Shown here: positions 5,246 through 38,916 of the stretch, piece by piece
Numbering within the stretch: position 1 is the stretch's first letter
How the letters are laid out: the number at the start of each line of letters is the position of its first letter
IMG/VR virus record: IMGVR_UViG_2778261064_000020
Coordinates: 1-39,924 of that record
Direction: 5' to 3' (one strand)
Length of the DNA: 39,924 bases
Origin: a virus
Lineage: Duplodnaviria; Heunggongvirae; Uroviricota; Caudoviricetes
Program-made: the position numbers and the translations under genes
Notes under the pieces: model-generated
What the model was told of the DNA's origin: nothing
The model's input: the letters and a program-made list of their open reading frames with translations, nothing else
Databases searched by the model: none

Positions 5246-5734
5246 TTATTTGATAAGAAGTGAAGGTTTCCCAACTTTGAGTTGAGCGCCGGGGATATTT
5301 ATTCCTGCTTTTAGTTGGTGTTTGATTGCCAGTTTGTCGGCTTTAATTGTCGTTTCAAACTCAACGTATTCAGGAGGAAGGGCGCTTGAGTCGATGATTT
5401 CTACAGTTTCTGACGGTTTGCGGATTGTTACCTGGTGAATACCTGCTCTAATCTTTTTCTTGCCAACCATTTCAAGCGATGACGCTATATACGCCATAAT
5501 GCTGCCAATCTTATTTTGAATTACTGCGGCTCGCTCATTCAGTGACTTTGCCTCTTCCTTGAGGCGTTCAGCATAACCAGATTCATTTTTAATAATGGCA
5601 AGAAGTTGCTCTATTTTATCGGTAAATTCTCCTTCCATGCCTTCTATTGTGTCAGCAATCATCTCTGGTTCTAAATCTGAATCCATCAATTTTGCGTATT
5701 CATTGGCAATTTCATACAGTTTGCTCACTGGCAA
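5246..5734 (-). CDS. Hypothetical protein next to the recombinase (possibly Gp157-like)
   Basis: 162-aa acidic coiled-coil protein immediately downstream of RecT; family assignment from memory only. Confidence 0.45.
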   Translation of the reverse strand: MPVSKLYEIANEYAKLMDSDLEPEMIADTIEGMEGEFTDKIEQLLAIIKNESGYAERLKEEAKSLNERAAVIQNKIGSIMAYIASSLEMVGKKKIRAGIHQVTIRKPSETVEIIDSSALPPEYVEFETTIKADKLAIKHQLKAGINIPGAQLKVGKPSLLIK

Positions 5735-6623
5735 CCTCCAGTTTCGCTTTGCATTCTATGTAAATGGCTTGTACGTTCTGCTGCAATTTCATTCCAGATG
5801 TCAGGCGATATGCTTCTGCAAAATATCGCTTCAAATCATCCATGTTTTCTGCCTGAGCCATTTCATCGCAAAGAAGTTGTGCTTTATCCATTATTTCCTG
5901 CTGGCGTTTCCGTTCATCTTCGCGGATATCTTCCTCTGATTTGTGCGGCATAACTGGTTCGGTCCACACGCCTTCTTCTTCGTTTAGTACGTGAATAGCA
6001 CTATCAAGGCGTGATGCCTTAGGCCAATACTTGCTTGCACGCTTTACGACCGTCTTTCGCGCCATCTCATTCCAGTGATTTACCCATGGTCCTTTATCGC
6101 TGAATGCTGCCTTGCTTGTTTTCCTTACAGCCTCAATTTCAGCCAGACTCATCTCTTCCGTTAGATAATCACCTGCTGGCGTCTTAACTGTGCAGTAAAC
6201 GCCAACGATATCACCACGGTCACCGAAGGCGTTGTATTTATGGGTTGGTGCTTTATCAAGCCCGTTTGACTCATAGGTATCGTTAGCATGAACAAGTTTT
6301 GCCTGACCCCATGAGATAACACCAGACTCCATTGCAATATGGAGCAATCCCATATAGCTGATATCAAGGCACACCATGCCGTCGCGAGGAACCAGATAAG
6401 CCAGTTTGCTGGCCGGGTTTAAGGTGATGCCGATCGCCGCAACATTGATGATGGCGTTCTGTGCGCTGGTTGGATTTGCCAGTGCTGTTTTAGCCAGGTA
6501 ATCGTTTTTCTGGAAATACTGAATTGCAAACTGGCTTTCCTTAGCCCATGTCACCGTCTGTTCAGTCAATGCTCCGCAGAATAACTGCTCCTGCTGTTTA
6601 ACGAATTCAACGATATTGCTCAT
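5712..6623 (-). CDS. recT: RecT-family single-strand annealing recombinase
   Basis: 303 aa; motif GPWVNHWNEMARKTVVKRASKYWP closely parallels Rac RecT GPWVTHWEEMAKKTAIRRLFKYLP. Confidence 0.8.
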   Translation of the reverse strand: MSNIVEFVKQQEQLFCGALTEQTVTWAKESQFAIQYFQKNDYLAKTALANPTSAQNAIINVAAIGITLNPASKLAYLVPRDGMVCLDISYMGLLHIAMESGVISWGQAKLVHANDTYESNGLDKAPTHKYNAFGDRGDIVGVYCTVKTPAGDYLTEEMSLAEIEAVRKTSKAAFSDKGPWVNHWNEMARKTVVKRASKYWPKASRLDSAIHVLNEEEGVWTEPVMPHKSEEDIREDERKRQQEIMDKAQLLCDEMAQAENMDDLKRYFAEAYRLTSGMKLQQNVQAIYIECKAKLEVASEQTV

Positions 6624-6931
6624 GCAGCTTCTCCAAAAATGTGTCTGCGTTTGAATATTGCGAAGGCATATTCAGCCTTAACTCTTTCGGTTATTGCATC
6701 CCAGAACCATTCAGCGGCTTTTTTCTGATAGTTACAGTCATCATCTTCCAGCCAGTCGATAGCGTCCTTAGTGTGTTCATCTGGTTTATATGAGCGAAGC
6801 ATTTCGCTTATTGGGTCGCAACGTTTGCAGAGGCGATCAACTTCACTGTTGATTCGTTCGTAATCTTCATCAGTAAAACTTGCGATTATTTGCGATATTT
6901 CACGCTTATCATTCAGAGTCAGAATCATCAT
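6620..6931 (-). CDS. Hypothetical phage early protein
   Basis: 103-aa ORF with overlapping stop/start junctions to its neighbours. Confidence 0.5.
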   Translation of the reverse strand: MMILTLNDKREISQIIASFTDEDYERINSEVDRLCKRCDPISEMLRSYKPDEHTKDAIDWLEDDDCNYQKKAAEWFWDAITERVKAEYAFAIFKRRHIFGEAA

Positions 6932-7016
6932 CTTTCTCCTGTTCTTTGTGCTGATTGAGCATTTCTTTCATCTGACGAATGAATTCTTCGTCTGACCAGT
7001 TATCTGTAAAACTCAT
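6909..7016 (-). CDS. Small hypothetical protein (35 aa), translationally coupled
   Basis: Manual translation MSFTDNWSDEEFIRQMKEMLNQHKEQEKDDDSDSE; ATGA overlap with the kil-like ORF. Confidence 0.25.
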   Translation of the reverse strand: MSFTDNWSDEEFIRQMKEMLNQHKEQEKDDDSDSE

Positions 7017-7165
7017 TTCCTGCGATACCACGGAAGGTTGATAGCTGATTTCATCGCTTTATTTGCTTCAAGCCACATTTTTGAATCACCAATAAACCTG
7101 GCTATTACTGCTTTGTTTTGTGCTGCACGAAGCATCTGGTGATTGATGGCTATTTCATTGCGCAT
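7013..7165 (-). CDS. kil: Kil-like small protein (host cell-division inhibitor family)
   Basis: 50-aa ORF; ARFIGDSKMWLEA resembles lambda Kil ATFIGDEKMFREA as I recall it; located next to a cIII-like ORF as in lambda. Confidence 0.45.
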   Translation of the reverse strand: MRNEIAINHQMLRAAQNKAVIARFIGDSKMWLEANKAMKSAINLPWYRRK

Positions 7166-7284
7166 AACGCCTCCAGTTGTTTCTTTGCTGCTCTGATTAA
7201 TTGTTTAACTCGGCGTGATAATTCAGATTCGTGCGGGTAGAAAGCGGACATGACGCCGCTACCCGCGAGCTGAAAGTGCATCAT
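7150..7284 (-). CDS. cIII: CIII-like protein (FtsH/HflB inhibitor family)
   Basis: MMHFQLAGSGVMSAFYPHESELSRRVKQL resembles lambda CIII (MQYAIAGWPVAGCPSESLLERITRKL); AAGGAG ribosome-binding site 6-9 nt upstream; the longer ORF in the track (to 7389) is probably not used. Confidence 0.55.
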   Translation of the reverse strand: MMHFQLAGSGVMSAFYPHESELSRRVKQLIRAAKKQLEALCAMK

Positions 7285-7508
7285 GGGTAACTCCTTATAT
7301 TTGATTGCATAACGAAAACGCCTCGAATGAAGCGTTATTGGTATGCATATAAAAAGGCCCTCACACTGGAGGGCAAAGAAGATTTCCAATAATCAGAACA
7401 AGTCGGCTCCTGTTTGGTTACGAGCGACATTGCTCCGTGTATTCACTCGTTGGAATGAATACACAGTGCAGTGTTTATTCTGTTGTTTATGTCAAAAATA
7501 AAGGCCGA

Positions 7509-8132
7509 CTATGCGGCCTCGGAAGGAAGTCCAATCATCTTATTCAAATCTTCTACCCGTAAAGCAGGAAGTGCTGTACTTGCTTTATCTGCTTCTTTTG
7601 GTAGCAATTCTTTGCTTTCAGGCCAAACCTCAATAAGTCGCTTAACTGTTGTGACTGAGTTCAAAGCAGCCCATACATTTGATTCGATATCCTTTTTCTT
7701 GGCTTCAAGTTTTTGTTGCAATGCGCAGATTTCATCAAACCTTTTTGTTATTTCGTGTTCTGCGCTAAACATGCATTTATCTTTGTTCGGAGTAGGGAGC
7801 AATATATCTTCGCCGTTGCCGTCTTTCCCATATGAAAGCCATCCAACCCTTCTGCCAGATACAGTCAGATAAATTGAAGTAGAACGAACATCGTATGAGT
7901 AAAATGAACATCCAATCTTTCCAAGTTCTTCACTTATAGCTACCAACTTGGATGATAACTGATTCACTTCCTCAGTTTTCTTTTTACCGCCAAACGCAAT
8001 AACTCTGGCGTCAAGTGCAAGCTGGTTCTTTAACTTTGTTACTTCTTCAAGTTCAGTGAAAACCCCAGACTTAATTAAAGCGTTACGAGCGATTTCCTCT
8101 TTCATTCTCGTAGTTAAGCGGATTGATGACAT
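7509..8132 (-). CDS. Hypothetical protein in the N-cIII intergenic slot (lambda ral/sieB/ea10 position)
   Basis: 207 aa starting MSSIRLTTRMKEE with a GAGG ribosome-binding site; soluble, no recognisable motif. Confidence 0.55.
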   Translation of the reverse strand: MSSIRLTTRMKEEIARNALIKSGVFTELEEVTKLKNQLALDARVIAFGGKKKTEEVNQLSSKLVAISEELGKIGCSFYSYDVRSTSIYLTVSGRRVGWLSYGKDGNGEDILLPTPNKDKCMFSAEHEITKRFDEICALQQKLEAKKKDIESNVWAALNSVTTVKRLIEVWPESKELLPKEADKASTALPALRVEDLNKMIGLPSEAA

Positions 8133-8143
8133 ATTAATTCCTC

Positions 8144-8470
8144 TCAAATAAGTGGTTTGCTGCCTAATTTCATTTTCTGGCGACCAACACAAGTCACACC
8201 CATTTCACTGCGTGGCTTGCTGTACCATGTGCGCTGATTCTTGCGCTCAATACGTTGCAGGTTGCTTTCAATCTGTTCGTGGTATTCAGCCAGTACCGTA
8301 AGGTCTATCGGATTCAGTGCGCTTTCTACTCGTGATTTCGGTTTGCGATTCAGCGAGAGAATAGGGCGGTTAACTGGTTTTGCGCTTACCCCAACCAACA
8401 GGGGATTTGCTGCTTTCCATTGAGCCTGTTTCTCTGCGCGACGTTCGCGGCGGCGTGCTTGTGCATCCAT
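8144..8470 (-). CDS. N: Antitermination protein N
   Basis: MDAQARRRERRAEKQAQWKAANPLLVGVSAKPVNRPILSLNRKPKSRVESALNPIDLTVLAEYH... is near-identical to lambda N as recalled (arginine-rich motif). Confidence 0.85.
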   Translation of the reverse strand: MDAQARRRERRAEKQAQWKAANPLLVGVSAKPVNRPILSLNRKPKSRVESALNPIDLTVLAEYHEQIESNLQRIERKNQRTWYSKPRSEMGVTCVGRQKMKLGSKPLI

Positions 8471-37522: not shown

Positions 37523-38680
37523 TCACTCCACCTTTTCATCAAGCCAATCTGCCCACCACTGCATCATTTCTCTGCGCTTGTCGAGATACTGAGCGTGGTT
37601 GTAAATCCCGCGCACAGATCCGCCGTTGGCATGTGCCAGTTGCACTTCAATAGCATCAGCAGGCCATTCGTGCTCGTTCATAATCGTGCTGAATTCATGC
37701 CTGAATCCGTGACCGCTTTCCAGCCCTTCATAGCCAATTTGTTTGATCACAAGCAATACCGCGTTCTCGCAGATTGGCTTCTTCTTATCGTTGCGCCCGG
37801 CAAAAACAAACTCTGAGACTGGTTTGGTGATTGAGCTTAGCGTAGTGAGAAGTTCAACCACCTGGTCTGACATCGGGACCACATGAATTTTGCGTCCCTT
37901 CATCACACTGGCGTCGATGGTGATAATCCTGTTTTCAAAATCGACGTTCTTCCATAGCATGGAACGAAGCTCTTTTGTTCTTAGGGCTGTGTAGCGTAAA
38001 ACTTTGGTCGCAATGAGCGATACGATACTTCCTGAAAATGTTGCCAGTGCTTTGTTGAATGCCGGGATCTGGTCTGCAGGAAGAAACGGGAAGTTCTTCT
38101 TGCGGTATCCCTTCATGGCGTCAGCAAGGTCAGGTGCTGGGTTATATTTAGCCCTTCCGGTGACAATAGCGTAACGGAAAACCTCGCCGCATCTTCTGCG
38201 GGCTTTATTTGCTCGCTCCATTGCACCGCGATCTTCAAATCTGCGGATTACTTCCAGCAGTTGCATCGGCTCAATATCCTGAATCTCAAGACCGCCGATG
38301 ATGGGTAAAATGTCGTCATCAAACATTTTTGCAAGTTCAGTCGCATACCCTACTGACCAGACTTGCTTCTTGTGTTCGTACCATTCCTTGTAAATTGCAC
38401 TAAAGGAATTGTTGTTAGACGAAGCCTTTTTCGCCTTTACCGGATCGATGCCAACCGAGATGTCTTTCCTCGCAGTCCATGCCTTATCCCTTGCTTCCTG
38501 CAAAGTCATAAGCGGATATTTTCCTACGGTCAGGATTTTCTCCTTACCGTCAATCTTGTAGCGAAGCTGCCATACCTTTTTCCCTGATACAGGGACATAA
38601 AGGTACAGGCCATTACCATCGAGAAGGCGGTATGGTTTTTCTTTCGGCTTTGCTGCTTCAATCTGCTTAACGGTGAGCAT
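37523..38680 (-). CDS. intS: Tyrosine integrase, P4/IntS type (argW-specific)
   Basis: Matches E. coli IntS as recalled (MLTVKQIEAAKPKEKPYRLLDGNGLYLYVPVSGKKVWQLRYKIDGKEK...); C-terminal R...HGFRH...Y catalytic residues; an in-frame upstream Met at 38716 is also possible. Confidence 0.85.
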   Translation of the reverse strand: MLTVKQIEAAKPKEKPYRLLDGNGLYLYVPVSGKKVWQLRYKIDGKEKILTVGKYPLMTLQEARDKAWTARKDISVGIDPVKAKKASSNNNSFSAIYKEWYEHKKQVWSVGYATELAKMFDDDILPIIGGLEIQDIEPMQLLEVIRRFEDRGAMERANKARRRCGEVFRYAIVTGRAKYNPAPDLADAMKGYRKKNFPFLPADQIPAFNKALATFSGSIVSLIATKVLRYTALRTKELRSMLWKNVDFENRIITIDASVMKGRKIHVVPMSDQVVELLTTLSSITKPVSEFVFAGRNDKKKPICENAVLLVIKQIGYEGLESGHGFRHEFSTIMNEHEWPADAIEVQLAHANGGSVRGIYNHAQYLDKRREMMQWWADWLDEKVE

Positions 38681-38835
38681 GGGTAAAAATCCGGTGGGTA
38701 AAATTATTTTATCCACTTTTTACCCGTCATGGAGTGCGGCTGTCAACGATCTGACGCGAACCATGACGAACTGTGAATCTACGGAAGGCTTGATATTCAG
38801 GGGATTTTGCGGACTGGTACGGATGGAGGCGAACT

Positions 38836-38856
38836 GATAAATGGTGTCCCCTGCAG
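38836..38856. repeat. Prophage att core copy overlapping the argW 3' end
   Basis: Exact 21-bp direct repeat of 1678-1698. Confidence 0.85.
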
Positions 38857-38916
38857 GAATCGAACCTGCAATTAGCCCTTAGGAGGGGCTCGTTATATCC
38901 ATTTAACTAAGAGGAC
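38842..38916 (-). tRNA. argW: tRNA-Arg (anticodon CCU)
   Basis: Reverse complement reads GTCCTCTTAGTTAAATGGATATAACGAGCCCCTCCTAAGGGCTAATTGCAGGTTCGATTCCTGCAGGGGACACCA; canonical cloverleaf with CCT anticodon. Confidence 0.9.

Follow-up and report, generated by a model that had tools for sequence, protein, structure and literature searches.

An Nmad5-family gene lies right behind N in the pL operon of a P22-like Escherichia coli prophage with lambda-type immunity

The open reading frame at positions 7509-8132 of the window (the whole stretch of 39,924 nt that was analysed, IMG/VR record IMGVR_UViG_2778261064_000020) encodes a full-length member of the Nmad5 protein family, more than chance would give, and it is an early phage gene, transcribed from pL right behind the antiterminator gene N. 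The 207-aa product matched Pfam PF18757 (Nmad5) with E=1.6e-71 and 241.1 bits against a cutoff of 27, residues 4-203 being aligned on profile positions 1-206 of 206, and it also matched PHROG 1965 (function unknown). The sequence-only reading had described the protein as unrecognised and without any known motif, a description that does not hold for a full-length Pfam Nmad5 member to which PGAP gives the same name. As an entity the gene is already known, catalogued and near-identical to many deposited sequences: its product shared 97.6% identity with hypothetical proteins of HK542 and HK244 and 96.1-96.6% with those of mEp235 and Stx1 phages, and copies with up to 99.7% nucleotide identity were present among the complete E. 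coli genomes (211 of 5426), where the PGAP/RefSeq label is 'Nmad5 family putative nucleotide modification protein'. The name Nmad5 (PF18757) stands for 'nucleotide modification associated domain 5', and the Nmad context was defined in a 2013 paper by Iyer. Searches with the 207-aa protein gave no match among the NCBIfam profiles, no family at E<=0.1 among the PADLOC defence profiles and no relative among the PDB sequences (best E=0.43), and nothing relevant was found in the literature on mEp235, PhiR12 and PF18757.

An exhaustive HMMER search (E<=1e-3) recovered 2278 clusters when grouped at 50% identity, almost all of them stand-alone, single-domain proteins of about 200 aa; 143 of the 150 top representatives had 182-229 aa and the remaining seven were shorter. 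Conservation was measured on 196 sequences and on two further alignments. Residues R5, I14, A18, K21, R43, G48-G49 and G93 in the N-terminal two-thirds were conserved family-wide, together with a C-terminal block comprising T162, L166, W170-P171-E172, E175-L176, P178, L188-P189, L196-N197 and I200-G201-L202-P203, in which L188, P189, L196, N197, I200, G201, L202 and P203 were each common to at least 83% of the 196 sequences. All the family-wide conserved residues that were tested were found in the window protein. Among 62 lambdoid alleles dN/dS was about 0.33, with both ends of the protein being the most constrained (0.17-0.21), and nowhere was there a sign of positive selection; diversifying selection on an exposed helix was considered and rejected, the highest regional pN/pS being 0.56.

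The features identified in the window are shown in Table 1. In the list of open reading frames the gene was part of a longer frame (7509..8192, minus strand), in which the ATG at 8132-8130 gives the 207-aa product. The Shine-Dalgarno-like sequence preceding this codon overlaps the stop codon of N (TGA, 8146-8144), the gap between both genes being 11 nt. The nutL region lies beside pL, window positions 8600-8558 corresponding to lambda 35538-35496. A consensus scan detected no promoter-like site of its own upstream of the Nmad5 gene, and a simple terminator scan detected no terminator-like site between N and the Nmad5 gene. Since no such site separates both genes, the nucleotide sequence suggests that expression of Nmad5 may begin together with that of N. 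At the other end, the last codons of the gene form the first arm of a terminator-like hairpin. The product, with a pI of 8.3, had no hydrophobic span (maximum Kyte-Doolittle value 0.68 in a 19-residue window) and no transmembrane segment. The start codon, the ribosome binding site and the lack of a hydrophobic span thus agree with the soluble 207-aa protein predicted previously, and the prediction that this was the sole gene in the N-cIII slot was also confirmed, as no other gene was found between N and cIII.

Table 1. Position of the features identified in the window
Feature	Position	Strand	Remarks
RecT	5712-6623	-	recombination module
Gp157 / Mu Gam-like protein	5246-5734	-	recombination module
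phrog_3486 protein, 103 aa	6620-6931	-	recombination module
kil	7013..7165	-	phrog_2055, E=1.2e-35
cIII-like gene, 44 aa from MMHFQ	7150..7284	-	phrog_550, E=1.3e-12
Terminator-like hairpin GAGGCCG-catagt-CGGCCTT then TATTTTT	7491..7520	-	hairpin scan
Nmad5-family gene, 207 aa, MSSIRL...SEAA	7509..8132	-	stop codon 7509-7511, ATG 8132-8130
Shine-Dalgarno-like GAGAGGA	8139..8145	-	direct sequence reading; 6 nt 5' of the ATG
Antiterminator N, 108 aa from MDAQARRRERR	8144..8470	-	ORF translation; 93% nt identity to lambda 35386-35062
pL-like promoter TTGACA-17-GATACT	8651..8679	-	consensus scan, 10/12 matches
cI	10216-10929		immunity region, lambda-type
cro	11030-11230		immunity region, lambda-type
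Integrase	37523-38716	-	prophage end
Host tRNA-Arg(cct)	38842-38916	-	adjoins integrase, marks attachment site

The window holds an entire P22/HK620/CUS-3/Kapi1-like prophage of about 37.5 kb with lambda-type immunity, which encodes portal, coat and tailspike; that the prophage is whole was deduced from the tRNA-Arg(cct) gene beside the integrase, which marks the attachment site. A recombination module (5246-6931, minus strand) is located in place of the lambda exo-bet-gam genes. In the slot of lambda rexA/rexB, downstream of cI and upstream of pL, we observed an ORF of 173 aa (9193-9714, minus strand) that matched PHROG 2602 (unknown), with no significant Pfam match and no PADLOC match. This ORF was 100% identical in lambda-immunity Stx2 phages (Nil2, YYZ-2008 and 2851), is followed by a terminator-like hairpin (8891-8870), and starts after about 500 nt from the cI stop that appear to be non-coding; it is a candidate for a cargo gene expressed in the lysogen. 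Phage tRNA genes Asn(gtt) and Thr(tgt) were found at 16713-16868 (plus strand), directly after the Q antiterminator gene (16076-16621).

A sample of 80 closely related prophage loci from IMG/VR was examined. The Nmad5 gene was 94-99% conserved in these loci, which differed from each other in immunity type, in the N-terminal part of N and in their downstream modules; the C-terminal end of N is conserved and moves together with the gene. Homology broke within the C-terminus of N and again 26-41 nt past the Nmad5 stop, just beyond the hairpin and its T-run, and the hairpin at 7491..7520 was kept in almost all of the 80 loci. These breakpoints at both sides indicate that the mobile unit consists of the 3' end of N, Nmad5 and the terminator-like hairpin. 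The kil gene was located from 335 to 2200 nt beyond Nmad5, the inserts downstream of Nmad5 being ea10, phrog_1376, phrog_1273 and other genes, with ral/orf28 sometimes present upstream. Such variable insertions on both sides support the earlier suggestion that this region is a hotspot for accessory cargo.

Positions 7512-7347 of the window matched the lambda ral-ea10 spacer (34087-33923) at 96% identity, and positions 7346-7308 matched the lambda sequence just past ea10 at 95%, showing that the Nmad5 gene occupies the place of the sieB-orf28-ral block and that ea10 is precisely absent. No homologue of lambda Ral was found in the window by tblastn or by Pfam, and no SieB homologue was found in the window or in the 80 loci. 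A role of the gene as a functional stand-in for ral, sieB or ea10 is not supported, given the presence of ral directly upstream of Nmad5 in 10 of the 80 loci (in the order N-orf28-ral-Nmad5, with 8 of those Nmad5 copies intact) and of ea10 downstream in 15. Nmad5 also co-occurred with abc2 (37 loci), Gp157 (15 loci) and lambda gam (8 loci). A substitute for the RecBCD inhibitors or for ral/ea10 was consequently rejected, since Nmad5 co-occurs with each of them, and its coexistence with gam, abc2 and Gp157 makes RecBCD unlikely as its target. The sequence at 7335-7430 (minus strand) was considered as a possible remnant of a 354-aa gene and this was also rejected, because it is a short leader ORF (MSLVTKQEPTCSDYWKSSLPSSVRA...) that lambda has too, conserved with its ral-ea10 spacer; in some relatives this ORF continues in frame into the phrog_1376 gene. 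Two more terminator-like hairpins were located at 7374-7357 and 7336-7317.

The Nmad5 gene is dispensable. In Stx2a-converting phages an IS3-family element (about 1.3 kb) interrupts it near codon 35, internal stops were present in 3 of 79 prophage copies, and lambda and P22 have no Nmad5 gene. The split gene was observed in locus L090 (LC616032.1 8500-13500) and in 48 Stx2a-converting phage records, and the orfA/orfB genes of the element resemble those of IS629. Genetic data exist for a homologue from a Dhillonvirus (SM_S22 CDS6), which carries the same Pfam domain (E=1.2e-55) but differs from the lambdoid protein in its length of 334 aa, which includes an insert and 80 extra residues at the N-terminus, and in its location, within the head module of a lytic siphovirus and on the opposite strand. 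The K296E substitution in this protein led to escape from the Tmn defence, the deletion mutant was viable and did not escape, and cloning of the wild-type gene failed, apparently owing to toxicity (PMC11846954, Yamashita et al. 2025). Since deletion gave no escape, K296E is a gain-of-function change, as expected for a binding surface; K296 aligns with R165 of the protein described here, inside the conserved T162-E172 segment. The homologue that supplied these Tmn data has 334 aa and shares only 31% identity with the lambdoid protein over the C-terminal 100 residues. The protein that triggers Tmn in T2 is RIIB (PMC13001434). A relationship between Nmad5 and T4 RIIB was rejected, the hhalign probability being 0.6% and BLASTP giving nothing significant.

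In distant phages, three genes on either side of Nmad5 were inspected in 24 dereplicated loci, and the neighbourhoods were heterogeneous and the samples small. The neighbours included DUF2800/PD-(D/E)XK nucleases (4 loci), DNA_pol_A (4), Enc34 SSB (3), AAA_24/Sak4 (2), primase (2) and cI-like or N regulators (2-4), and none of the 24 loci contained HMUDK, aGPT-Pplase or thymidylate synthase. N4-like phages had the arrangement ThyX, Nmad5, PD-(D/E)XK exonuclease, primase and Sak4; elsewhere Nmad5 adjoined a Rv2179c-like exonuclease, a dNMP kinase or DNA polymerase A, preceded AAA_24, or followed a primase-helicase gene. In several phage groups Nmad5 was a moron-like insert in head or tail modules. 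Two metagenomic contigs (L092 and L093) and Dhillonvirus SM_S22 (L004) had it between portal/Mu-F head-morphogenesis and scaffold/capsid genes, as the first gene of the capsid operon in both contigs and on the opposite strand in the Dhillonvirus.

Two AlphaFold2 models, built from 22 and 68 aligned sequences, showed the same layout with pLDDT values of 84.5 and 86.9. Three N-terminal helices (8-22, 24-47 and 50-72) are followed by a beta-hairpin (86-100), a long helix (127-158) and short helices (163-176), whereas the tail (183-207) was unmodelled (pLDDT about 45-55), though it is among the best-conserved sequence of the family. Foldseek gave nothing under E=0.18 against the PDB, and the viral structure library gave matches only to other uncharacterised Nmad5 proteins. 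The check by AlphaFold and Foldseek that had been proposed earlier thus gave a confident helical-bundle model with a beta-hairpin, but no solved structural relative. From the models we infer that the conserved tail, which does not pack on the monomer, is a motif for partner binding or oligomerisation. No catalytic fold was seen in the AlphaFold model; with no known enzyme fold matched, the protein might still have one of a new kind, and the invariant polar residues R5, K21, R43, T162, E172 and N197 would be just as compatible with a catalytic site or a site for ligand binding. A role as DNA mimic was rejected on account of the pI of the protein and the range of 4.95 to 9.75 in the family.

On the whole we tentatively favour, with less than even confidence, the view that Nmad5 is a non-enzymatic early binding factor, whose partner would be tied to phage DNA metabolism or to host interference. 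It would be a helical protein that engages its partner through an invariant surface, with no catalysis, this surface being formed by R5/K21/R43 near the N-terminus, by T162-L166-W170-P171-E172 and by the C-terminal tail, LPA..V.DLN..IGLP, which is conserved though unstructured. Phage DNA undergoing replication or recombination would be the link to this partner, which might be a host factor sensing or attacking that DNA or might belong to the phage's own machinery, and the outcome would be that early DNA metabolism is supported or host interference is blunted. Both the type of partner and the binding through the C-terminal module are what we infer from the conservation and the models. The earlier guess of a defence or anti-defence function is only indirectly supported, by the fact that the gene is dispensable, roams between genome contexts and, in a Dhillonvirus, escapes Tmn by a missense change (PMC11846954); Nmad5 may have a role of anti-defence type.

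It is unlikely that Nmad5 is a dedicated counter-defence protein unrelated to DNA metabolism, which would inhibit host immune proteins, e.g. a membrane NTPase such as Tmn, or a restriction or abortive-infection system. The gene does have the first slot after N, where lambda and P22 carry ral, a patchy distribution and a dispensable nature, it is found as a moron on the opposite strand within the head module of the Dhillonvirus and is present in structural modules of other phages too, and one substitution in the homologue, unlike its deletion, escapes Tmn (PMC11846954). However, the wild-type Dhillonvirus protein gives no protection against Tmn, there is no similarity to solved anti-defence proteins, exonuclease, SSB or polymerase genes often adjoin Nmad5, and the strong conservation across phages of very different hosts (dN/dS 0.17-0.21 in the most constrained parts and no region above 0.56) is unlike that of fast-evolving inhibitors. 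We also regard as rather improbable that Nmad5 is an intrinsic component of replication or recombination, not directed to the host, such as a protein that mediates or scaffolds the action of annealase, exonuclease or SSB, or one that binds DNA ends or forks. This would fit the PD-(D/E)XK/DUF2800 nucleases, Sak4/AAA_24, SSBs, DNA polymerase A and primases among the distant neighbours, as well as the location of Nmad5 at the head of a lambdoid operon ending in RecT/Erf/Bet modules; yet Nmad5 combines freely with the unrelated modules RecT+Gp157, Erf+Abc2 and lambda Red+Gam, most lambdoid phages with these same modules lack it, no DNA-binding motif was found in a protein whose pI is near neutral and varies from 4.95 to 9.75 in the family, and the gene is also placed in head and tail modules.

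The activity implied by the Pfam/PGAP name, that of a nucleotide- or DNA-modification enzyme or its accessory, seems highly improbable. Only Yuavirus/Vojvodinavirus place Nmad5 in a thymidine-hypermodification cluster, between the HMUDK_hel protein and the dUMP hydroxymethylase, and the gene is listed in the M6/SN1 modification cassette (PMC9476957); the adjoining ThyX of the N4-like phages and the invariant polar residues also point in this direction. In contrast, such neighbours were present in 0 of the 24 distant census lineages, gp54, gp51, gp53 and gp52 alone, without Nmad5, sufficed for the in vitro reconstitution of the M6 5-NedU pathway (PMC8989533), and the protein had neither an enzyme-like fold nor homology to the neighbouring HMUDK_hel domain (hhalign probability 0.3%). 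The genes sampled in the early-left and nin regions of the prophage yielded no kinase, aGPT-Pplase, hydroxymethylase or methyltransferase; without partner enzymes a hypermodification role here is not expected, and it is very unlikely that Nmad5 takes part in nucleotide modification in this prophage. The family name rests on the gene neighbourhood in a minority of lytic phages and overstates what is known. Protection of the lysogen by a sieB-like defence or superinfection-exclusion protein is hardly credible. Only its position favours such a function, lambda sieB being within the block replaced by Nmad5, but a gene on the pL strand, 11 nt behind N and lacking a promoter-like site of its own, is expected to be shut off by cI repression, the protein had no PADLOC match and no transmembrane segment, and the family is abundant in strictly lytic phages. 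SieB, by contrast, is a membrane protein with its own promoter.

Ral of lambda and P22, the restriction-alleviation protein whose gene comes first among the accessory genes behind N, shares with Nmad5 the operon and the position relative to the ral-ea10 spacer, both genes being early and dispensable, but Ral has 66 aa and no sequence or family similarity to Nmad5. Lambda Gam, P22 Abc2 and the Gp157/Mu Gam-like proteins are likewise small, early, helical, dispensable and encoded beside recombination genes; Nmad5 has a similar placement by exonucleases and annealases in lytic phages, with no homology to these host-nuclease inhibitors. The DefensePredictor 'NMAD' defence system was considered as a possible Nmad5 system and rejected, as it contains Nmad2 (PF18753), which is part of a validated E. 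coli defence system, 'NTTI' (PMC13092281). Nmad2 and Nmad5 have in common the 'Nmad' label and an association with HMUDK_hel, but they belong to different Pfam families, one in a bacterial defence operon and the other as a phage early gene.

For the window itself the finding is ordinary, and the remaining interest lies in a family that has no assigned function. Nmad5 is among the larger phage protein families without a known function, being present in lambdoid, Stx-converting, N4-like, Yuavirus and Dhillonvirus phages, and the chemistry implied by its database name is not supported here for most of its members. Its sole genetic phenotype, the escape from Tmn, is relevant to the engineering of phages for therapy. 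A broader proposal, which we consider doubtful, is that Nmad5 is misnamed and represents a very widespread, structurally new class of early effectors that act by binding and not by catalysis. Their invariant C-terminal WPE...LN..IGLP module would bind a factor, conserved in proteobacteria, by which replicating phage DNA is sensed or attacked, and nearby substitutions could retarget the module, e.g. to Tmn. If this were true, the lambdoid copy, sharing its transcript with N, would provide the whole family with an easily tractable model. A P22-like E. coli prophage with lambda immunity, having Nmad5 as its sole N-cIII cargo, offers a convenient system for finding the function of the family.
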